A stretch of DNA of 64,000 bases. Source: Bacteroidales bacterium. Its GTDB lineage: Bacteria > Bacteroidota > Bacteroidia > Bacteroidales > UBA3663. Shown piece after piece: positions 12,347 to 52,969 of this stretch (its first letter is position 1; every line of letters begins with the position of its first letter). The stretch is from the NCBI GenBank assembly GCA_045639585.1, contig JAZUDJ010000109.1:8378-72377 (forward strand), read 5' to 3'. The position numbers were made by a program, and so were the translations under genes. The notes beneath the pieces were generated by a model. It saw only the letters and a list, made by a program, of their open reading frames with translations. It was not told where the DNA came from and did no database searches.

Positions 12347-13255
12347 TTAACCTTCAACTACCGGATAGTTTTCCAACTCGTGACCGATAGGAGCACCGAG
12401 CCAGAGAGGGATGCCATAAGGCTCGACGATGGATTTTATATTGTCCCAGAGCTTGACGGGCATGGTCGGATCTTCGTCACAGCTGGTGAAGTGACCGCAG
12501 ACAAGACCCTTGATCTTCGAGAATACACTGCAGATCTTGAGCTGCTGCAACATGCGGTCAATCTTATATGGACTCTCGCTGATATCCTCAATAAAGAGGA
12601 GTTTGTCCTGATAGTCAAAGTCGTATGGAGATCCATGCAAACCACTGAGTACGGCCAGATTACCACCTACCATCGGCACAGGATGTGCCATTAGTTCGTC
12701 GAGGATTTCTTCTGTTTTTTCAGGATTCAGGTCTTCTGGAGACCATCCTTGATGTGGCGCGACAAAGAGCGATGCTTTCTTGAGGAACAGCAGATTATGT
12801 TTCTGAGGCCAGCTGCGATGAGCTGCATAATACTCAAGCAACTCCTTGATGGTCTGTGTGGTACGATGAGTAGGATTTTCTCCCAAGTGCTTCATCATCG
12901 GAGCATGCAGGCTCTTGATACCCGCTTTTTGCCAGAGGGCATGGAGAATCGTAATATCAGAATACCCGACGATAGGTTTGTTGGCACGACTGACCAGATC
13001 AAGAGGTAGCATCTCAATCAACTGCATACAGCCATAGCCCCCACGTGAGCACCAGATGACATCAATGCTCTTATCCTCAAGGGCTTCGATCAGATCTTGT
13101 ACTCGATCTTCTGGAGTACCGGCAAAGCGACCGTAGGATCCTTTGGCATGAGGAGCAAATGTGACGTTGTGTCCCCAGCTTCGGAGAGTTTCTGCTCCTT
13201 GGTCAATTACCTTGCCTTTGATGCTACCAGCAGGTGAGATGATTCTGATATTCAT
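12347..13255 (-). CDS. ldcA: LD-carboxypeptidase (peptidase S66, LdcA/MccF-like)
   Basis: Motifs IWCSRGGYG, VGYSDITILH (Ser nucleophile) and the C-terminal GAPIGHELENYP. Confidence 0.8.
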   Translation of the reverse strand: MNIRIISPAGSIKGKVIDQGAETLRSWGHNVTFAPHAKGSYGRFAGTPEDRVQDLIEALEDKSIDVIWCSRGGYGCMQLIEMLPLDLVSRANKPIVGYSDITILHALWQKAGIKSLHAPMMKHLGENPTHRTTQTIKELLEYYAAHRSWPQKHNLLFLKKASLFVAPHQGWSPEDLNPEKTEEILDELMAHPVPMVGGNLAVLSGLHGSPYDFDYQDKLLFIEDISESPYKIDRMLQQLKICSVFSKIKGLVCGHFTSCDEDPTMPVKLWDNIKSIVEPYGIPLWLGAPIGHELENYPVVEG

Positions 13256-13318
13256 AATTAAATAGAAGAGTATAAATGTTCAAAATCTTCAGAAATTTGT
13301 TGCAAGATCAAACACTAC

Positions 13319-13528
13319 GGTTTCGTTTGTGCGAATCTTACATGAAAGATCAGATGTCCCGACTTCGTTTGTGCGAATACTTCGTGCAGGATCGGACGTC
13401 CTGATTTCGGTTGAACCGATTTTGCATGTAGGAAGGTATCACAGAGATTCAGGCGAACCCTTCCTTGATGAAGGAAGATATCGCAGTGATTCCGTTGAGC
13501 CCTTCCATGATGCAGGATTTCAACGTTG
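13319..13528. repeat. About five tandem degenerate 42-bp hairpin units, related to the repeats at 51.0 kb
   Basis: Unit boundaries read by eye at 13319, 13361, 13403, 13445 and 13487. Units 1 and 2 share ttcgtttgtgcgaat. Later units carry ggaaggtatcacagagattc and cccttccttgatgaaggaagatatcgcagtgattc. Confidence 0.7.
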
Positions 13529-13545
13529 TGTACGTAACGTCAAAT

Positions 13546-14691
13546 TTACAGTCGTGTGGTGACCTCTTTTAATGTCTGATCCTTCCAAGGCTTAAAGTCT
13601 CCAGCAAGAATATGCTTGCGCGCCTCTCCGACGAGCCAGAGATAGAAGGCAAGATTGTGAATAGAGGCAATCTGGAGTGCGAGATATTCTTCGGCATGGA
13701 AGAGATGACGTACGTAGGCCTTGCTGTATACCTGATCGACGTAAGTAGGACCATCTTCCTGAAGTGGAGAGAAGTCATGAGCCCACTTGGCATTCTTGAT
13801 GTTAATGATACCGTGACGGGTGAAGAGCATACCGTTACGACCATTGCGAGTTGGCATGACGCAGTCGAACATATCTACTCCACGCTCAATGGCTTCAAGG
13901 ATATTGGCTGGAGTACCAACGCCCATGAGGTAGCGAGGACGATCCTGTGGCAGAATCTCGTTGACTACCTCGATCATCTCATACATCTTCTCTGCTGGTT
14001 CACCTACGGCGAGGCCACCGATGGCATTACCCTCTACGTCCATGGCTGCAATCTTCTCTGCTGCACGACGACGGAGGTCCGGATAGGTACAACCCTGCAC
14101 GATAGGGAAGAGGGCCTGATGATAACCATAAAGTCCGTTGCCCTGCTCATCCTCAGTCTCTTTGTAGCGCTTGTAGCAGCGGTCGAGCCAACGCTCGGTA
14201 AGTCCTAAAGACTTCTCTGCATACTTGTAATCTGAGTCGCCAGGAGGACATTCATCAAAGGCCATCATGATATCTGCACCGATGATTCGCTCAATCTCCA
14301 TGACACGCTCTGGAGTGAACAGGAGCTTCGAACCATCGATGTGGCTGCGGAACATGGCTCCCTCTTCGGTCAGCTTGCGATTTTCTGCCAATGAGAAAAC
14401 CTGGAAGCCACCTGAGTCGGTGAGGATAGGACGATCCCAACCGTTGAACTTATGCAAACCACCGGCTTCTTGGAGCACATCAAGTCCTGGACGCAGATAG
14501 AGATGATAGGTATTACCTAAGATGATCTGCGCCTTAACGTCTTCCTTGAGTTCCTTGAAATGCAGACATTTAACCGATCCTACGGTGCCAACTGGCATGA
14601 AGATAGGTGTCTGGATCTTGCCGTGATCGGTCGTGATCTCGCCGGCGCGAGCCCATGAGTTCTTATCGGTAGCTTGTAGTTCGAAAGTCAT
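13546..14691 (-). CDS. tgt: tRNA-guanine transglycosylase (queuine tRNA-ribosyltransferase)
   Basis: TDHGKIQTPIFMPVGT, LTDSGGFQVFS, GLAVGE; 381 aa. Confidence 0.95.
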   Translation of the reverse strand: MTFELQATDKNSWARAGEITTDHGKIQTPIFMPVGTVGSVKCLHFKELKEDVKAQIILGNTYHLYLRPGLDVLQEAGGLHKFNGWDRPILTDSGGFQVFSLAENRKLTEEGAMFRSHIDGSKLLFTPERVMEIERIIGADIMMAFDECPPGDSDYKYAEKSLGLTERWLDRCYKRYKETEDEQGNGLYGYHQALFPIVQGCTYPDLRRRAAEKIAAMDVEGNAIGGLAVGEPAEKMYEMIEVVNEILPQDRPRYLMGVGTPANILEAIERGVDMFDCVMPTRNGRNGMLFTRHGIINIKNAKWAHDFSPLQEDGPTYVDQVYSKAYVRHLFHAEEYLALQIASIHNLAFYLWLVGEARKHILAGDFKPWKDQTLKEVTTRL

Positions 14692-14700
14692 AAATGAGAA

Positions 14701-14733
14701 GTGAGGAGTTAGGAGTGAGGAGTTAGGAGTTGG
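14701..14733. repeat. 14-bp perfect tandem duplication (gtgaggagttagga x2 plus a partial third)
   Basis: Read directly at 14701-14714 and 14715-14728, then gttgg. It spans the DedA stop codon (14723-14725) and the 31-nt spacer before the tgt ATG. Confidence 0.6.
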
Positions 14734-34837: not shown

Positions 34838-36301
34838 ATGAAGACATCTGCAAAAGTAATGCTGAGCGCTCTCTTCGCAATGGGCACCACAGCAATGTAT
34901 GCACAGACTCCAGAGATGCTTGCTACCATGTGTGCAAATGATCTGGACGCTGGTACCAACAACTCTCTTTACAACGACTTCTTCCCTAAGGGAGGTGAGG
35001 CAAAGCCTCTCTCTGCTTATGAGAACTGGAAGGCTCTCTACGATGCAGTTCCAAACTTCAATCAGGCTCTCTATCTTAATGGTGAGAAGATTCTCGTTGC
35101 TAAGGTTGATAAGGCTGTAAAGGATAATAATGCTGCAGATAAGCAGAAGTACGCTAAGGAGCTTGAGAAGTTGATGGAGGATCGTGTAAAGTACGGTTTC
35201 GCTACTAAGACCGTTCCTGCAGAGGCTATTCAGTTGAAGAAGGTTGACTACTTCAAGAAGTATGATTCTGAGGCTACTGACAAGACTGTTTACGAGCAGT
35301 ATGGCGAAATCCTCAAGGGTTTCCGTGGTGGTGCACAGCCATATTACATCGGCCAGTGGTGTGATCTATCTTTGAAGATGGCTAAGGCTGGTGGTGATAA
35401 GAATGGTTACATTCAGGACTACATGACATCTACCGAGTATCTTGATGAGGCTCTTGACCGTTACGTACTCCGTTATGAGGAGGACACCACTGCAGTTGTT
35501 AAGGCTCAGGCAGCTGGAGGTGATGTAGCAAAGCTCGAGCGTGCAGCTAAGGCTACCAAGCAGCTTCTTGATCAGGCTAAGAGTTACAAGATGAACCTCA
35601 CTCAGAAGTTTGCTACCTCTGGTTATGCTGATGTCAACACTCTCGTTGAGATCTTTACCCCACAGGTTGAGGACAAGAAGAGCGACCTCGCATTCCTTAA
35701 CAATGTAGCTAAGCTTCTCGGTCGTACCGCTGAGGGTCGTGAGACTGATCTCTATACTCACGTAGCAGATTACTCTTATCAGATCGAGCCTTCAATGCAG
35801 GCTGCTAAGGGTCTTGCTAAGGCTGCTCTTAAGGCTAAGGATTACGATCGTGCTATCCAGTACTATGATGAGGCACTTGGTCGTGCTATCCAGCCTGATG
35901 ATAAGACTGAGATTCTTCTTTACGAGGCAGCTATCTATCAGGATCGTGGCAACAAGGCTAAGGCTCGTGAGCTTCTCCGCAAGTCTCTCAGCATCGATCC
36001 ATCACAGGATACTCCACACGTAATGATCGCTTCTATGTACGCTTCTTCAGCTAACCAGTCAGGTGCTGATAAGGCTGCTCTGCGCCAGCTCGTATACGTT
36101 GCTGCATACAATGAGATGCAGGCAGCTGTAGCTAATGCACCAACAGATGAGAAGAAGGCAGCATACCAGCGCACCATGGCAGCCTACAAGGGTGGTTTCC
36201 CAGCTAAGGGTGACCTCTTCATGCAGGCAGGCAAGCAGCCAGGTGAGTCTTACACCATCGGCGGTTGGATGGGCGTAACCGTAACAATCCAGTGCCAGTA
36301 A
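34838..36301 (+). CDS. Secreted Ala/Lys-rich protein with C-terminal TPR units
   Basis: Signal peptide LSALFAMGTTAMYAQ. TPR-like AIQYYDEALGRAIQPDD and AKARELLRKSLSIDPS. The codon choice is strongly biased (gct/aag/ctc/ggt), which suggests high expression. Confidence 0.7.
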   Translation: MKTSAKVMLSALFAMGTTAMYAQTPEMLATMCANDLDAGTNNSLYNDFFPKGGEAKPLSAYENWKALYDAVPNFNQALYLNGEKILVAKVDKAVKDNNAADKQKYAKELEKLMEDRVKYGFATKTVPAEAIQLKKVDYFKKYDSEATDKTVYEQYGEILKGFRGGAQPYYIGQWCDLSLKMAKAGGDKNGYIQDYMTSTEYLDEALDRYVLRYEEDTTAVVKAQAAGGDVAKLERAAKATKQLLDQAKSYKMNLTQKFATSGYADVNTLVEIFTPQVEDKKSDLAFLNNVAKLLGRTAEGRETDLYTHVADYSYQIEPSMQAAKGLAKAALKAKDYDRAIQYYDEALGRAIQPDDKTEILLYEAAIYQDRGNKAKARELLRKSLSIDPSQDTPHVMIASMYASSANQSGADKAALRQLVYVAAYNEMQAAVANAPTDEKKAAYQRTMAAYKGGFPAKGDLFMQAGKQPGESYTIGGWMGVTVTIQCQ

Positions 36302-36326
36302 TCTTTTGATTAAGACATATAAAATT

Positions 36327-36368
36327 AATAATGGACGTCATGATATATGGCGTCCATTATTATTTTAT
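36327..36368 (+). terminator. Hairpin plus T-tract terminator
   Basis: aataatggacg (36327-36337) pairs with cgtccattatt (36351-36361), followed by attttattg. Confidence 0.6.
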
Positions 36369-47111: not shown

Positions 47112-50100
47112 ATGATCAACAAGAATTCCATAGAGTACGATTCGCTGACTGGTTTATACAGCCGGTGGAAGATTCGTATGGCCTTGCAGGAAATTATCGA
47201 TTCTGGAGAAAATCGTGTCCTTACTTACCTCGATGTCGATAATTTCAAAGAAATCAATGCAAAATTTGGAAATGAGAAAGGTGATGCTGCACTCATCGCT
47301 ATCGGCCAGGCATTGACCAGGACTTATCCGGAGATGATGATCGGTCACTTGTCTGCAGATGAGTTCGCGATCATCATCGATGCAAGCAGATATTCGCGTA
47401 ACGACATGAATAATTTGACGCGTAGTCTGTTTAAGAACCTCCATGAGATTCATGTAGAGGGAATGGATGGTTACCGTTTCACATTCTCCATATCAGCAGT
47501 ATTCATTGTTCCTGAGCATCATACACATCCTGATCTTGTAATCCGTGAAGCCCATGAGCTCCACAAGATTTCAAAGAAGCACGAAGGCAATTACCTTAGT
47601 ACACTTAATGGAATGATTCCTGATGTAGAAGGTGCCTTCCAGATTCTCCGTGAGGACCGTAAGATATATAATGAGATCAATAATCATCTTTTTGATACCA
47701 TTAACGAGCAGTCATGGCTTGCCAACCTTGAAGAAGGTGCTATCCTCAAGGAGAAGATGTATCATCGTAATCAGTCACAGTTGGAAGACATCTATGAGTT
47801 TTATCGTGGTACTAATCTTCCTGATTCTGAGTACGAAATGCTCTTTGTTGAGATAATGACCGATGCAGATTCGCTCGATGCTTTTTTGCGTTGTAATCTG
47901 ATTGAGAGTATACTCTTGCCTTATTATGAGAAGCAAGATCTTTCTGACCCTCGTATCTGCTCTTATCTTGGACATCTATATCTGCTTCTCGCTCATAGCC
48001 TCCTTTCTGTAGTTCGAATGGGCGATGATACTCAGAGCTCTCGTGTCTTTGACTGTATGAAGAGAGCTTATCAGCTTTGTAAGAATTTCCCTCATGACAG
48101 CATTCAGTTTGAACCTGCATACTATGCTCTTTGCGGAATGGTAGGACACTATGAGAGTGTCAGCTTGCAGCTTTTCCCTAAAGAAGAGTGCGATTTCTGT
48201 TATGAGCAACTGCGAGAACTTACTTTGGGAGCAGATCCTTTTATCGTCCCAGAGAAGAAGGTCTATCGTTTCTTTGAAACTGTCGTCAAGAACGCTTTAT
48301 TATATCCTATCTTCCGAGTCTGCTTCCTTAAAATGAAGGGAGAAGATATCTCTGCAGAGGAGAAGATCGAGATGTCGGAACGAATTGCCTATATCCGTCA
48401 GCACCAGAACGGTGGTTGTTTTGATATGGTGGTAAACGACCCAGAACTTTGTCGTTTCTCTATCTATCTGCAGCAAGTGATGCTGGAAGACCTTGATAAT
48501 AATGAGTTGCTTGAAGGTCTTTTGAAAGGACTTCAATCTATTCGTGCCATGGAATATGGCCGACTGAGTGAATCAAATCTCATCATTGTCTCGTATCTAT
48601 TCTTGGCAACGTCAAAAGTCGTTTTGAATGTCGATCTACCTCATGAAGAAAAGTTGGAGATCAGCTGTAGAGGTCTTAACTTCCTTCTCGACATCCTTCG
48701 CAGCCGAGAGTCCTTGGCTTCTGACCATCAGCTGCTTCTGCTCGTACGCATCATGATCAATTCCATGATGAGTTCACCTGTCTTGTCTCCGCTTGACAAG
48801 TTCTATTACCTTGAGCAGATCATGGCAGCCATCTCTCTTGACGCGTACAGTCACTCCATGGCTCTCAGCAACTACGCTCATGTGATCCTGGCCAACATCA
48901 TCGACCATTATCCTCAGTTACTTGTAGGAGAGGATCGTGTCTATTCTACCATTGAAGAGGCACAGGCCAACCGTGAGCCATTGTTGCAATTCATGGATTA
49001 TGTCTGCCGACTGCATGATATCGGTAAGCTTTCTCTTATTCCTGTTACGAGCAATGCTTTCCGACGTCTTTCTGACCAGGAGTTCACTCTGATCAAGAAA
49101 CATACAGAATTCGGCAAGCAGATCCTGAGTCTCGATTCCAGATATTCCTTGTTTATTCCGATTGTCTATCATCATCATCGCTGGTATAATGAGGAAAAGG
49201 GTTATCCGTATATTCCAGAAAACGAGCATAACTATAAGCTAAAGGTACTTACCGATATTCTTAGCATCTGCGACTCGATTGAAGCTGCTACCAGTCGCGT
49301 CGGTCGTAACTATCGTCGTGCTAAGTCGTTCCTTCAGATCTTGGATGAACTGCTTTCTGATGCCGGCAGCCGATATAGCCATGAGATCATCAATAGTATC
49401 ATCGGTAATACTGAGACCTATCTCCAGATTCGCGCTATTGTAGATATACGTTGGAAAAGTCTCTATAGATCTATCTTCAAGAGTGTCAGGCTCAATCAGA
49501 ACGTTGAATACATGCATACTCAGGGAGAATTGCCTGATATCTTTGCCTATTCTAAGAAGAAGCTCGATGCCGAGTCGCTTGCAATACAGCAGGAAGGGCT
49601 TGTGATGCCAGAGTTTGTCAAGCAGATGGACAAGGAAACACTCGACATTCTTTTGATGGGTATGATGCATCAGAACAGGCTTTCTGTCATGCGTCATAAT
49701 TCGCTGATGTTCTTTTATAATGTAGCTCAGGATAGCATGTATTACCTTATGTGCGATGCTGATGGCAATCTTAAGCATTCGGTAGCTGCAAATTATTCTA
49801 TATCACCTCAGTATGCATATATTTCACGCGAAGGATATGAGAAAGCCATGCGAATCATTAAGCTCGTCATCGAAGATCCTGATTATCCGAAGGAAGGTCA
49901 GGAAACGATCGAATATATTAATAAGTCAAAGTGCTTGCTAACTCATTATACATCTGTCTGTGACGTTAATGGTAAGGTGAAGAGTGTTGTTGGTCATCTG
50001 GAAGACATCAATACTTCAAAAGAAAAGATGCTTCGTACGATTGACCGACAAAACCGTTACAACCAGATTACCGAGTCTTTAAGCAGGATGTTCGAGATCG

Positions 50101-50963
50101 TAGTCTATACCGATGTAGAACTCAAGAATCTCGAACTTATCAAAGCGTCCTCTACGGTTATGAGTCAGGCGGGTAATCTGACTACTACGACTGATTTTAT
50201 CAATTACACGCTAGATAATCTTGTCGATCCGGAATATATGGATCAGTTCAAGTCATTTATCGATGTCCGTACGCTAGACGAGCGATTAGCTGGTCGTTCA
50301 TATATTTCTCTCGAATACAAGTCTCGCCTTTCTGGTTGGCTCTTTGCCCGTATTATTCCAGTTTCGTTTGATAAAAAGGGTATGGTCACTCACTTCCTCT
50401 TTGCAGCCGAAAGTGCAGACGTTGCTCATAAAGAAAAGGAAGAATTGACAGAACTTGCTAAGAATGATGGTCTGACAGGTCTGCTGAATCGTATTTATGG
50501 AGAGAAATTCATACGAGAAGAGATTGCCAAGGGTGGCGAACAGGTCTTTGCTGTGCTTGATTGCGATCACTTCAAGCATATTAATGACTATCTGAGTCAT
50601 CTTGTCGGAGATGAAGTGCTCCGTCAGCAAGCTACCATCATGCGTCAGGTCTTCGCAGGGTTCAATATCATGCGTCTAGGAGGAGATGAATTCGTCGTTC
50701 ATGCCAATGGTGAGGTTGCCCATCGGTTTATTTATTCGTTCGATGGAGTCAACAATCTTTTCCGTCAGTTTGCAACTAAGATTTCTGAAGTTAAGATCCA
50801 GGAGCTCGAGAACATTGCACCAACCATGAGCTGTGGCGTCGTCTTCTGCACAGGATCAGTTCATCAGGCGACTTTCGATGACTTTTATGCAAAAGCTGAT
50901 AGCGCTCTTAAAGAGAGCAAGAAGAAACGTGGCGGATGTATTACCATCAGAGAGATGAATTAA
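47112..50963 (+). CDS. Multidomain cyclic-di-GMP signalling protein: degenerate GGDEF, helical region, HD-GYP, PAS-like x2, GGDEF
   Basis: N-terminal DSLTGLYSRW, LDVDNFKEINAKFGNEKGD and GHLSADEF (SADEF at 47352-47366). HD-GYP motifs RLHDIGKLS (HD at 49014-49019), HTEFGKQIL and HHHRWYNEEKGYPY. PAC-like VVGHLEDINTSKE. C-terminal NDGLTGLLNR, LDCDHFKHIND and RLGGDEFVV (GGDEF at 50679-50693). No signal peptide or TM segment. Confidence 0.85.
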   Translation: MINKNSIEYDSLTGLYSRWKIRMALQEIIDSGENRVLTYLDVDNFKEINAKFGNEKGDAALIAIGQALTRTYPEMMIGHLSADEFAIIIDASRYSRNDMNNLTRSLFKNLHEIHVEGMDGYRFTFSISAVFIVPEHHTHPDLVIREAHELHKISKKHEGNYLSTLNGMIPDVEGAFQILREDRKIYNEINNHLFDTINEQSWLANLEEGAILKEKMYHRNQSQLEDIYEFYRGTNLPDSEYEMLFVEIMTDADSLDAFLRCNLIESILLPYYEKQDLSDPRICSYLGHLYLLLAHSLLSVVRMGDDTQSSRVFDCMKRAYQLCKNFPHDSIQFEPAYYALCGMVGHYESVSLQLFPKEECDFCYEQLRELTLGADPFIVPEKKVYRFFETVVKNALLYPIFRVCFLKMKGEDISAEEKIEMSERIAYIRQHQNGGCFDMVVNDPELCRFSIYLQQVMLEDLDNNELLEGLLKGLQSIRAMEYGRLSESNLIIVSYLFLATSKVVLNVDLPHEEKLEISCRGLNFLLDILRSRESLASDHQLLLLVRIMINSMMSSPVLSPLDKFYYLEQIMAAISLDAYSHSMALSNYAHVILANIIDHYPQLLVGEDRVYSTIEEAQANREPLLQFMDYVCRLHDIGKLSLIPVTSNAFRRLSDQEFTLIKKHTEFGKQILSLDSRYSLFIPIVYHHHRWYNEEKGYPYIPENEHNYKLKVLTDILSICDSIEAATSRVGRNYRRAKSFLQILDELLSDAGSRYSHEIINSIIGNTETYLQIRAIVDIRWKSLYRSIFKSVRLNQNVEYMHTQGELPDIFAYSKKKLDAESLAIQQEGLVMPEFVKQMDKETLDILLMGMMHQNRLSVMRHNSLMFFYNVAQDSMYYLMCDADGNLKHSVAANYSISPQYAYISREGYEKAMRIIKLVIEDPDYPKEGQETIEYINKSKCLLTHYTSVCDVNGKVKSVVGHLEDINTSKEKMLRTIDRQNRYNQITESLSRMFEIVVYTDVELKNLELIKASSTVMSQAGNLTTTTDFINYTLDNLVDPEYMDQFKSFIDVRTLDERLAGRSYISLEYKSRLSGWLFARIIPVSFDKKGMVTHFLFAAESADVAHKEKEELTELAKNDGLTGLLNRIYGEKFIREEIAKGGEQVFAVLDCDHFKHINDYLSHLVGDEVLRQQATIMRQVFAGFNIMRLGGDEFVVHANGEVAHRFIYSFDGVNNLFRQFATKISEVKIQELENIAPTMSCGVVFCTGSVHQATFDDFYAKADSALKESKKKRGGCITIREMN

Positions 50964-50980: not shown

Positions 50981-51020
50981 ATAAGGTATCGGACGGTTTC
51001 GTTCGATACCTTATTTGTTT
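50981..51020 (+). terminator. Hairpin plus T-rich tail after the GGDEF/HD-GYP gene
   Basis: ataaggtatcg (50981-50991) pairs with cgataccttat (51004-51014), followed by ttgttt. Confidence 0.6.
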
Positions 51021-51186
51021 CATTAAGTTACTGTAGTGATTTCTGTAGTACCTTCCTACATCTCGGAAGGTATCGCACGAATCACTGTGATCCTTTCCTA
51101 CATCTCGGAAGGTACCGTAAGAATCACTGTGATCCCTTCCTATAAGTAAGAAGTTATCGCACGAAACATTGCGATAACTTCTTTTG
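51009..51186. repeat. Tandem 41-42-bp hairpin repeats of the same family as 13319-13528
   Basis: 51051-51091 ccttcctacatctcggaaggtatcgcacgaatcactgtgat. 51092-51133 cctttcctacatctcggaaggtaccgtaagaatcactgtgat. 51134-51175 cccttcctataagtaagaagttatcgcacgaaacattgcgat. A more degenerate unit lies at 51009-51050. Confidence 0.75.
51150..51186. terminator. Perfect 12-bp hairpin inside the last repeat unit
   Basis: gaagttatcgca (51150-51161), loop cgaaacat, then tgcgataacttc (51170-51181) and ttttg. It lies 8 nt from the stop of the convergent transporter gene. Confidence 0.6.
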
Positions 51187-51193
51187 TTCTATA

Positions 51194-52969
51194 TTACATA
51201 AATAAGATCAGTACAAGCTGTGCCATCAGAATGCGCAGGAACATTGAGAGCGGATAGACAGTTGAGTAACCTACTGCTGGAGCATTATTGCCTGCTGAAG
51301 CGTTGGCAAAGGCGAGGGCAGGAGGGTCGGTCGTTGATCCAGCAATGAGTCCCATCAGTGTAAAGTAGTTGACCTTCATCTTGAGCCTTGCATAGATACC
51401 GACAATCAGGATTGGCAACACGGTAATGAGGAAGCCCATCCAGATGTAGTGGATGCCATCGCCTTCGGTGACTGTATCAACGAACTTCGCACCTGCCTGG
51501 ATTCCTACAGAACTTAGGAAAAGAATCAGACCTACCTCACGAAGCAGCAAGTTGGCTGAGGTCGAGGTGTATGAGTTGATCTTATATCGATAACCGAAAG
51601 CTCCGATGAGAATGGCTACGACGAGCGGACCACCAGCGAGACCTAATTTTACTGGGATAGCAACGCCTGGAATAGGGATAGGCAACTGACCAAGTAATAC
51701 ACCGAGTAGGATGCCGAAGAAGATTGCACCTACGTTAGGATGATCAAGATGCTTGATGTCGGCACCAAATAAGTTACGAAGCTGCTCAATGTTCTCCTTA
51801 CGACCAGTTACCAAAAGACGGTCACCGACCATCAGCCGAAGGTCGCGAGCTGCAAAGAGATCTACACCGTTGCGGGTGATGCGTGTAACGTTGACACCGT
51901 AGATAGTAGAGATATGCAGGTCGCCGAGAGTTTTGCCATTGATCTTTGGCTTGGATATAATGATGCGCTCACTGACATAATCTGCGATGCGATCATCTTG
52001 CTGCCACTGGCCACGAGGAATTTCTTCTCCGAGGAGTAAAGCAATAGCTTCTGACTCTGATTCTGCACAGGTCACATGAAGTTCCATACCCATCTGCAAC
52101 TGTGTCTCTCCATTTGGGATGATGACTTCTCCATTCTCGAGGAAACAACGACTGATAACGAACTGACGCTTCAGAAAGTCATGCAATTCCATGAGGTTGC
52201 GGCCTATTACAGCGCTGTTCTTTACCTTGACTGCCATGTGGAAAGCTGCACGGTCGGCATTGTTGCTCTCAGAATCTGCGAGCTCCTTGCGTGTAGCTTC
52301 GATACTTGTCTTGGTGAGGATGCGAATAGCTAAAGTTGCCAGGATGATACCTACTACACCGAGAGGATAAGCACATGCATAGCCATTAGCAATAGCTGGA
52401 GCTGCATCTCCAAGGACTTCAGAAAGTACGCTATTCGCTGCACCGAGACCTGGTGTATTGGTCACTGCTCCGTACATGACACCTACCATCATTGGCAGAT
52501 TGCCATCATGACCATCGATAGGTGAGGCTGTGAGAAGTCCAATGTTTGAACCGAGTACCCAAAGACCCAGCATGACTGCCACGTTGAGTACTACGATAGC
52601 TACGGCCAGCATATTCATCTTGACACCACCGCCACCGCCTTTGAACACTTCGAAAAAACTTGGACCTACCTGAAGTCCTATACAATAGACAAACAGGATC
52701 AATCCTAATTCCTTAACAACATCAATGATTGGCTTCTGATAGGCAACTGCATTAGCAGGGTCAGCATAGAGACCATGAGTGCAGATGTGGCCGACAACAA
52801 TGCCAACGAAGAGAACCCAGGTCACGCCAAATGCAATTCCATTCTTCTGACCACCGATCTTCCACTGACCCAAGCGAATGCCAAGGCTGATGACCAGCGC
52901 GTAGAGAATCATGATATGGGCAATACCCTCTGGATTCTGAAAAAGTTTGATTAACCACTCCATAAACAC
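51194..52969 (-). CDS. YidE/YbjL-family (AAE-type) transporter with two central RCK_C (TrkA-C) domains
   Basis: Two 5-6 TM halves flank two soluble modules (VIGRNLMELHDFLKRQFVISRCFLENGEVIIP and INGKTLGDLHISTIYGVNVTRITRNGVDLF). Confidence 0.85.
   Translation of the reverse strand: MFMEWLIKLFQNPEGIAHIMILYALVISLGIRLGQWKIGGQKNGIAFGVTWVLFVGIVVGHICTHGLYADPANAVAYQKPIIDVVKELGLILFVYCIGLQVGPSFFEVFKGGGGGVKMNMLAVAIVVLNVAVMLGLWVLGSNIGLLTASPIDGHDGNLPMMVGVMYGAVTNTPGLGAANSVLSEVLGDAAPAIANGYACAYPLGVVGIILATLAIRILTKTSIEATRKELADSESNNADRAAFHMAVKVKNSAVIGRNLMELHDFLKRQFVISRCFLENGEVIIPNGETQLQMGMELHVTCAESESEAIALLLGEEIPRGQWQQDDRIADYVSERIIISKPKINGKTLGDLHISTIYGVNVTRITRNGVDLFAARDLRLMVGDRLLVTGRKENIEQLRNLFGADIKHLDHPNVGAIFFGILLGVLLGQLPIPIPGVAIPVKLGLAGGPLVVAILIGAFGYRYKINSYTSTSANLLLREVGLILFLSSVGIQAGAKFVDTVTEGDGIHYIWMGFLITVLPILIVGIYARLKMKVNYFTLMGLIAGSTTDPPALAFANASAGNNAPAVGYSTVYPLSMFLRILMAQLVLILFM

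Follow-up and report, generated by a model that had tools for sequence, protein, structure and literature searches.

The DNA considered here, referred to as the window, is a 64,000-nt stretch of a Bacteroidales bacterium (NCBI GenBank assembly GCA_045639585.1, contig JAZUDJ010000109.1, positions 8,378 to 72,377), in which the spacer between tgt and an ldcA-like gene holds a tandem array of hairpin-forming 42-nt units. An earlier note, made from the letters of the sequence, had drawn attention to this spacer, and both its length of 290 nt (13256-13545) and its two flanking genes are as described there. The array, here called array A, turned out to be one decayed copy of a narrowly distributed, previously undescribed family of dispersed intergenic hairpin repeats found in a few uncultured, Muribaculaceae-like gut Bacteroidales. 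A better-kept copy, array B, which is probably functional, fills the spacer between a GGDEF diguanylate-cyclase gene and a convergent transporter gene of the same window. The coordinates are collected in Table 1.

The 42-nt periodicity of the tgt/ldcA spacer proposed in the note is borne out. Tandem Repeats Finder reports a period of 42 at 13426-13517 (2.2 copies, 80% matches), and the self-identity of 13300-13545 is 0.61 at lag 42 and 0.47 at lag 84, as compared to a highest value of 0.40 at any lag in 500 shuffles. The core of the repeat had also been said to recur at 51051-51175, and a second array does lie there. Tandem Repeats Finder gives period 42 at 51051-51165 (2.7 copies), and a sliding lag-42 scan of the whole 64-kb window yields a signal at 13267-13557 and 50981-51215 only, while none of the other lags from 36 to 48 gave any signal over the same stretch. 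The motif CCTTCC-N8-GGAAG, with at most one mismatch, occurs seven times in the window vs. 0.94 times expected; all seven matches fall at the two array loci, and none of 100 shuffles gave seven.

Table 1. Positions of the arrays, their parts and the genes and related features discussed in the text (window positions unless a locus label is given; L numbers denote loci outside the window)
Feature	Position	Strand	Description
Array A	13297..13548	-	six head-to-tail 42-nt units; minus-strand starts 13548, 13506, 13464, 13422, 13380, 13338
Two best-kept units of array A	13423..13506	-	GGAAGGGCTCAAC ggaatcac TGCGATATCTTCC ttcatcaa / GGAAGGGTTCGCC tgaatctc TGTGATACCTTCC tacatgca
Three decayed units of array A, second type	13297..13422	-	contain GGACGTCCGATCC and ATTCGCACAAACGAAGTC
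Leader (non-repeat) separating array A from the ATG of the ldcA-like gene	13256..13296	-	'aacatttatac' vs. 'tacatttatat' in the L067 spacer
tgt, upstream operon gene	13546..14691	-	TIGR00430, 473 bits
S66 LD-carboxypeptidase-like (ldcA-like) gene, downstream of array A	12347..13255	-	NF008424 below cutoff; orthologues carry Peptidase_S66
77-aa open reading frame	13329..13562	+	antisense to the operon; artefact of the stop-poor 42-nt repeat
Array B	50981..51190	+	five units, starts 50981, 51023, 51065, 51107, 51149; fills a 230-nt convergent spacer
Array B unit 1	50981..51024	+	terminator-like hairpin followed by TTGTTTCATT; 18 nt past the GGDEF stop codon
Array B unit 5	51148..51193	+	terminator-like: perfect 13-14-bp hairpin with TTGTTCTATA behind it; adjoins the stop codon of the transporter gene on the minus strand
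GGDEF diguanylate-cyclase gene	47112..50963	+	upstream of array B, same sense
YidE/YbjL-type transporter gene	51194..52963	-	convergent on array B; 589-aa product 100% identical to database protein P0121
Possible solo family member	36326..36362	+	terminator-like hairpin after a TPR gene (34838-36301); stem AATGGACGTC / GGCGTCCATT like the second unit type
Five-unit array of L067	5514-5723		GGATGTCTTATTC gcgtacac GAATATGACAAAA cgaagtct; between phosphoesterase and GDSL-lipase genes of the conserved tgt cluster
Six-unit array of L072	10013-10264		three stem types, one of them new: GGGATCCTTCAAC gggtactc GGTGAAGGATGCC
42-nt arrays in metagenome contigs	L014 1755-2083, L049 1593-1962, L050 3346-3748, L063 2148-2496, L064 1048-1325		5-8 units, 93-98% lag-42 identity, 13-8-13-8
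13-nt self-palindromes (e.g., GGAAAGGCTTTCC) every 21 nt, 8-nt spacers	L020 1675-1868, L031 2506-2699, L042 1713-2076, L046 952-1264, L030 8597-8769, L055 338-465		

Unit anatomy, covariation and fixed geometry

Each unit consists of a 13-nt arm, an 8-nt loop, a second 13-nt arm that is complementary to the first, and a linker of 8 nt, as in GGAAGGTATCGCA cgaatcac TGTGATCCTTTCC tacatctc. The hairpin (13-bp stem, 8-nt loop) measures 34 nt, and the 8-nt linkers bring the units to their strict 42-nt period. The unit boundaries are clear because related arrays were compared. They show that the tandem 42-nt arrangement described in the note is right, although the array comprises six units (13297-13548) instead of the five counted from 13319, and the register was off by 22 nt, about half a unit. 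Near-identity of the first two units, as then defined, applies to their first 18 nt (16/18) and not to the whole unit (31/42); the other unit pairs are identical at 17-28 of 42 positions. The units do form hairpins, as was supposed, but the 6-bp ccttcc/ggaagg stem is a weaker alternative pairing across the linker between two 13-bp hairpins. Such ccttcc-N8-ggaagg pairing exists because neighbouring units have similar arms, and the mean number of pairs is 9.7 within the unit vs. 9.1 across the linker. Units with unique stems still pair within the unit (11 of 13 pairs, e.g., L003 6134, L003 6176, and L072 10097), which identifies the within-unit hairpin as the real one.

The plus-strand reading of array A that the first description implied did not hold. 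A hidden Markov model of the unit gives minus-strand scores of 44.5 and 37.5 bits as compared to 9.4 bits on the plus strand, and the best match of an array A 42-mer to array B is 33/42 as the reverse complement vs. 28/42 in the forward direction. The sense of array A is thus minus, which is that of tgt and ldcA, and the sense of array B is plus, which is that of the upstream GGDEF gene. The two minus-strand scores (nhmmer) belong to the best-kept units at 13423-13506, which are of the 'GGAAGG...CCTTCC' type seen in array B and reach 40.0 and 34.8 bits with a covariance model.

The structure of the unit was examined across the family, which comprises at least 11 arrays in at least five assemblies; ten arrays were analysed unit by unit, with the array of L070 in addition. 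The 58 units from these ten arrays align at 42 columns without a gap, and there is not one indel among them despite a sequence divergence of more than 40%. The cells of the stem pair in 75.7% of cases vs. 56.8 ± 1.3% in shuffles, the observed value being reached in 0 of 500, whereas registers slid by one to three columns pair in 39-44%. The covariation score is 0.506 vs. 0.204, with changes on both sides at all 13 pairs. Units within one array are related, so that the covariation counts are not independent; the slid-register control keeps this relatedness. The hairpin and its geometry are therefore kept while the stem sequences vary, and both arms of a unit change together.

The same can be followed between species in array B, whose five units have 13, 10, 12, 11, and 13 of 13 pairs and whose folding z-scores are -9.22 (plus strand) and -8.54 (minus strand). 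The transporter protein of the window is 96% identical to that of L069 and 94% identical to that of L070, which shows that these two genomes are sister species of the source. In L069 the orthologous spacer is also 230 nt long, with no indels and 43 differences (18.7%), while 32-37% of the four-fold degenerate sites in both flanking genes differ. Five pairs show compensatory changes on both sides; in unit 4, nine of the 26 stem positions have changed and the pairing is still 13/13. Five further spacers were compared for the same two genomes, and each of them carries at least one indel, while array B has none. On the sense strand, mismatches of the G-U type outnumber those of the A-C type by 7 to 1 in array B and by 5 to 1 in its L069 orthologue. 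The only terminator-like sites in the region are units 1 and 5, both on the plus strand. Together with the G-U excess, they point to hairpins in RNA of the GGDEF sense.

A fixed spacing could also mark phased protein-binding sites on duplex DNA, lying on one face of the helix and occupied by, e.g., a nucleoid-associated or regulatory protein. B-DNA makes a turn about every 10.5 bp, so that 42 bp correspond to four helical turns, and gyrase and IHF are known to bind bacterial interspersed mosaic elements (BIMEs). The invariant 42-nt spacing, the constant lengths of loop and linker, and the position of some arrays in divergent promoter regions would suit such a role, as would the 13-bp self-palindromes that recur every 21 bp in other metagenomic arrays. 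The arms, however, are not conserved but co-vary, as a folded single strand needs and unlike a sequence-specific duplex site, and both the excess of G-U over A-C mismatches and the terminator tails on the end units of array B speak for RNA. Duplex binding appears quite improbable to us.

A broader proposal is that selection acts on the 13-8-13-8 geometry and not on the sequence, the arrays belonging as one branch to a larger, so far unrecognised class of hairpin arrays with a 42-nt (or 21-nt) phase. Such a class would have a dedicated structure-specific reader protein, be it an HUH nuclease, a recombinase, or a factor that binds RNA. We consider this unlikely, though it would agree with the absence of indels in the 58 units and between orthologues and with the wholesale replacement of stems with pairing kept. 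Arrays of the same dimensions also occur in unrelated metagenome contigs of 40-67% G+C (L014/L049/L050, L063, L064, L020/L031, L042, and L046); in these contigs the period and the six outer stem pairs were imposed by the search pattern, so that only the seven inner pairs are independent evidence. The contigs of L014, L049, L050, L063, and L064 (53-63% G+C) have loop and linker motifs in common (CAAAA.., ..ACGTT.) that are not those of the window family. In the 21-nt arrays the central gap of the palindrome is too small for an RNA hairpin, and they therefore look more like phased duplex binding sites. If rigid phasing did reflect a dedicated reader protein, this would be a new mechanism.

A conserved composite element was noticed in the high-G+C contigs L012, L013, L015, L018, L019, L040, L043, L045, L052, L053, and L066 (e.g., L015 388-449), several of which are labelled as human-gut metagenome assemblies. 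It consists of two CCTTCCCCT(A/T)AAGGGGAAGG hairpins at a distance of 42 nt, with additional GC-rich hairpins flanking them; it is not tandem and forms a family separate from the window repeat.

Distribution of the family and the history of array A

Beyond the two loci of the window, arrays were found in five other assemblies, two sister species among them. The source is an uncultured member of the Bacteroidales close to the Muribaculaceae. Its Tgt protein has a best match of 92% identity, as compared to 77-78% with Muribaculum and Duncaniella; L067 belongs to a relative with 92% Tgt identity. A pattern scan of 185,579 species genomes recovered the repeat in two metagenome-assembled genomes only, at four loci (L001-L004). 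Arrays lie at unrelated loci in GCA_045600445.1 (L001, L069) and in GCA_045628985.1 (L002, L003, L004, L070, L072), as well as in L067 and L071, and all arrays found are intergenic. About 70 kb of sequence from other close relatives contains no array. A first metagenome scan with a type-specific pattern gave no matches, a second with a purely periodic pattern gave 55 loci, none of them in the sequence family of the window, and scans of viral contigs for both unit types gave none. Searching the window against Rfam returned two tRNAs as the only gathering-level matches, and Rfam E-value scans of the locus, L003, and L004 returned only eukaryotic miRNA/snoRNA noise far below threshold. No description of the repeat was found in the literature on repeat sequences and on hairpin repeats of Bacteroidales/Muribaculaceae. 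One close relative carries a tandem repeat of another kind: an 18-nt unit, TTTCTTCTGCAACAGAGT, present in 14.4 copies with 91% matches at L005 15722-15980.

Several stem types (GGAAGGTATCGCA, GGAACGGACGTCC, GGATGTCTTATTC, and one-off stems) are mixed within arrays in one strict 42-nt register. This mosaic brings up the possibility that the hairpins are a single-stranded DNA substrate of a structure-specific enzyme encoded elsewhere, either an HUH transposase of the RAYT/IS200 type or a tyrosine recombinase. A conserved structure with a variable sequence would be consistent with this, as would loops that are flipped within arrays (cgaatcac vs. gtgattcg, cacaaa vs. tttgtg), unit types that are mosaic between loci, and the insertion of an array at a new site. 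However, a search of the 64-kb window for a mobilising enzyme gave only housekeeping genes, no transposase, RAYT, recombinase, or cas gene was found there, and neither was a transposase, RAYT, or recombinase gene found beside the other arrays examined. There is also no GTAG/CGTC tag, the units run head-to-tail and not as inverted pairs in the manner of REPINs, and a sequence-specific recombinase would need less variable arms. On balance, a substrate role of this type is rather improbable.

The history of array A can be read from its relatives. Its six units have 10, 8, 10, 7, 5, and 7 of 13 pairs. The stop codon of tgt, TAA, is where unit 1 starts, and the first hairpin begins 1-2 bases past that stop. 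The unit starting at 13422 closely resembles a unit of the L002 array, with the motif ttcgtttgtgcgaat identical in L002, and a hand count gives about 62% identity of the units at 13380 and 13338 with the L067 array unit after a 21-nt register shift. The spacer between tgt and ldcA is 290 nt in the window vs. 20 nt in L005-L008 and 27 nt in L067, which shares the gene order tgt-S66-GT4-LicD-phosphoesterase with the window. Since the relatives have spacers of 20-27 nt, array A represents an insertion of about 270 nt. The last 30 nt or so before the ldcA ATG resemble the L067 spacer, and the short match around 'aacatttatac' in the leader suggests that this piece is probably a remnant of the ancestral 20-27-nt spacer. 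Array A is thus an insertion or expansion in this lineage that is now decaying, its empty site being seen in relatives, and it interrupts what is very probably a tgt-ldcA operon. Target duplications, terminal inverted repeats, and shared end modules were looked for at the array borders and not found; local alignment of all array flanks gave no shared end module either, the sole shared piece being 15 nt within the last unit of L003 and L004.

The L067 array lies four genes beyond the tgt-ldcA site, at a junction that has no spacer in the window, which indicates that arrays come and go in the tgt gene cluster. Two repeats of other kinds were seen beside tgt. In L068, whose Tgt is 90% identical, the tgt-ldcA spacer is 118 nt long and holds an unlike 44-nt direct repeat at 1876-1966 (2.1 copies, 95% identical), so that the spacer has been invaded independently by another element. 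In the window itself, a C/T-rich 7-nt (or 14-nt) repeat, CTCCTAA/CTCCTCA, of about 4.6 copies fills the gap between the DedA-like gene and the start of tgt (14692-14731, minus strand).

The arrays may alternatively be selfish or neutral DNA, namely hairpin repeats of a minisatellite-like kind that grow by slippage or unequal recombination and pass from one spacer to another, array A being a functionless decaying remnant that is tolerated as non-terminating. Several observations agree with such an origin: array A is absent from the closest relatives and degenerate (5-10 of 13 pairs per unit), L067 has its array at a different spacer of the same gene cluster, arrays occupy spacers of all kinds, divergent ones included, and the family is narrow, with the four loci in the species genomes and none in the metagenome or viral scans. 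Other data speak against it. Two species have retained array B without any change in length, with compensatory stem changes and about half the divergence of the four-fold sites; the 58 units remain free of indels; and neither terminal inverted repeats, target duplications, nor conserved end modules were found, and no transposase in the window. We hold the selfish or neutral origin to be possible but doubtful as an account of the whole family; for array A alone it is compatible with the RNA-hairpin role proposed below.

The period of 42 nt equals 14 codons, and in array A one frame is open over 77 aa on the plus strand. The note had dismissed this open reading frame (ORF) as an artefact, and rightly so: the frame is not conserved between orthologous arrays, Pfam gives no match, and a peptide profile of the array translations finds two matches among 5.8 billion proteins, both of them ORFs called on arrays. 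The frame is open because the repeat is poor in stops and its period is a multiple of three. Of the orthologous pair of array B, only the window copy has it open, as two stops interrupt it in L069; which frame is open varies from one array to another, and up to four are open simultaneously in others. The L072 array, between divergent ferritin and cellulase genes, is annotated in the public record as a 100-aa protein. The idea that the arrays encode a repeat peptide with a 14-aa period, or small RNAs, can appeal to the open frame and to the strong folding of the arrays. The variation of the frame and the near-absence of matching proteins tell against the peptide. As to small RNAs, neither locus shows a sigma-70-type promoter-like site, in a scan that does not cover Bacteroidetes-type promoters, and no Rfam family matches. 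Either product is highly improbable. The arrays do, however, create spurious ORFs, such as the 77-aa frame here and the two 'proteins' in public databases.

A proposed role of the arrays as RNA hairpins between genes

The reading that we favour, with about an even chance of being right, is that the arrays act as RNA hairpin barriers or terminators similar to BIMEs and to repetitive extragenic palindromic (REP) elements. They would be transcribed together with the neighbouring genes and would act as RNA hairpins. At array B, a hairpin followed by a U-tract, as in units 1 and 5, would end transcription between the convergent genes, and the hairpin block would end both convergent transcripts and stop read-through. 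The hairpins of array A, which have no U-tract, would be read through and may form a barrier to 3'-to-5' exonucleases, or may simply be tolerated. Tandem duplication together with recombination between arrays, or else some enzyme, might have spread the arrays.

In Escherichia coli, 3'-to-5' exonucleases can be kept from the upstream message by intercistronic REP hairpins (see also PMC3733652), and by analogy array A may protect the tgt message in the same way. Given its decay, it may equally be a tolerated remnant. The sense strand of array A folds at -77.9 kcal/mol (z = -4.84). No terminator-like sites were found on this minus strand, and no T-run follows any of its hairpins, so that transcripts should be read through to ldcA. 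Array A is accordingly not a terminator at tgt/ldcA, although this had been one of the suggestions. Among the four roles suggested at the outset, a REP/BIME-like stabiliser or terminator nevertheless fits best; what falls away from it is the REP tag, the inverted dimers, and the terminator at array A.

One further hairpin, at 36326-36362, may be a solo member of the family. It scores 20.6 bits with the covariance model (E about 0.045, a rough value), and its 10-mer match could be due to chance. A listed ORF starts at 36331, inside this hairpin, and the start of the SpoIIE-domain gene concerned is therefore probably further downstream.

Several points weigh against an RNA role. Transcription of the arrays, their action as RNA, and an effect on tgt and ldcA are deduced from the sequence. 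G-U-type mismatches exceed those of the A-C type on the assigned sense strand by 68 to 42 overall and by 48 to 30 in co-directional contexts; as a hint of strand this family-wide excess is suggestive only, the bias being modest and the units not independent (p of about 0.02-0.05). The two strands of every array fold with nearly equal energy, which offers no useful asymmetry. Two of about ten arrays, L001 and L072, are flanked by divergent genes, a position in which a 3'-end role would be meaningless, and the proportions of arrays in co-directional, convergent, and divergent spacers do not depart clearly from a random choice. Array A itself, with 5-10 of 13 pairs per unit, may do nothing. Array B diverges by 18.7%, no less than the other intergenic regions (4.7-18%). 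A higher sequence conservation of array B is thus not supported, and the constraint on it is seen only in the comparison with four-fold sites, the lack of indels, and the compensatory changes. Finally, a plain RNA-hairpin role leaves the invariant lengths of loop and linker unexplained.

One argument for a 3'-end role was dropped, namely that the arrays always lie just after stop codons. Two of them are located between divergent genes, and with spacers of 20-30 nt in these compact genomes any insert must abut both genes.

Whichever role they have, the arrays offer a clean example of an unusually rigid geometry with clear arm-to-arm covariation. The window presents two contrasting situations, array A being an insertion that splits a conserved operon and array B a terminator-like block between convergent genes that is kept between species. 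In Proteobacteria and Firmicutes, REP, BIME, BOX, and ERIC (enterobacterial repetitive intergenic consensus) repeats shape mRNA stability, termination, and genome plasticity. Arrays of the present type may also hinder the assembly of metagenome-assembled genomes.

Comparison with known repeat elements

The family is closest to REPs and BIMEs in several respects. These are short imperfect palindromes with stems of up to 13 bp, extragenic, multi-copy, and often clustered (PMC3733652), and the window family is likewise intergenic and multi-copy, its 34-nt hairpins with 13-bp stems falling within the REP size range of 20-40 bp. As in REPs, the stem is kept while the sequence varies between sub-families, presence is variable between close relatives, and a role as RNA hairpins, located between genes or downstream of them, is proposed for both. 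The differences are no less clear. An unpaired GTAG or CGTC tag, conserved in REPs, is missing from the 58-unit alignment, in which the linker has the consensus TnCATnnn and no linker or loop column rises above about 65%. REPs mostly form inverted (head-head or tail-tail) dimers and rarely head-tail pairs (PMC3733652), whereas the units here run head-to-tail at exactly 42 nt with only occasional flipped-loop units. The loops are constantly 8 nt long, and no RAYT gene turned up in the 64-kb window or in the flanks of the other arrays. BIMEs are mosaics of REPs that alternate in orientation and have conserved linker motifs; in the present arrays unit types are mixed as a mosaic, and an alternating orientation is not the rule.

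In layout, the pneumococcal boxB repeat is similar: a tandem module of about 42-45 nt with a variable copy number, intergenic and dispersed, with predicted stem-loops if transcribed (PMC3049150). BOX elements, however, end in boxA and boxC modules and have terminal inverted repeats as well as target duplications, none of which was found in the window family, and they belong to another host phylum. SPRITE, a dispersed hairpin with a U-rich tail (PMC3049150), recalls units 1 and 5 of array B and the hairpin at 36326-36362, but it is a single element with an 18-bp duplex and not tandem, and most units of the window family have no U-tract. Intrinsic terminators present a comparable case. Units 1 and 5 of array B (plus strand) and the solo hairpin at 36326-36362 conform to the pattern of a hairpin and T-run, while the sense strand of array A has no such site and the other units of array B have no T-run; a chain of terminators with a fixed period would also be unusual.

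A few further candidates were rejected. Recombinase core sites such as loxP and FRT have a 13-8-13 layout. The dimensions match, but the arms of the present units vary widely and no recombinase gene is nearby. A MITE (miniature inverted-repeat transposable element) is excluded as no conserved termini or target-site duplications were found at the array borders, and a CRISPR array, in which unique spacers of about 25-50 nt part identical repeats, as the units abut, the only non-stem pieces are 8 nt long, and no cas genes lie in the window. An Rfam RNA family is not indicated by any match near the gathering score. A protein-coding tandem repeat was set aside because of the unconserved frame, the lack of a Pfam match, and the two array-derived proteins as the only matches.

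The only comparable element of gut Bacteroidales found in the literature is the unrelated BrickBuilt of Porphyromonas gingivalis, likewise an intergenic, spacer-less, multi-copy tandem minisatellite in Bacteroidales (PMC4596501). Its unit is 23 nt long (AGAYCATARTATCCTCTCRTRTG), it is not reported as a hairpin array, and its leader and tail modules carry terminal inverted repeats like those of insertion sequences. It was ruled out as a match because its 23-nt consensus has no sequence similarity to the window family. In general, the family described here resembles REPs and BIMEs in the way it is thought to work and tandem boxB in its layout, and it is a member of neither, nor of SPRITE or BrickBuilt.

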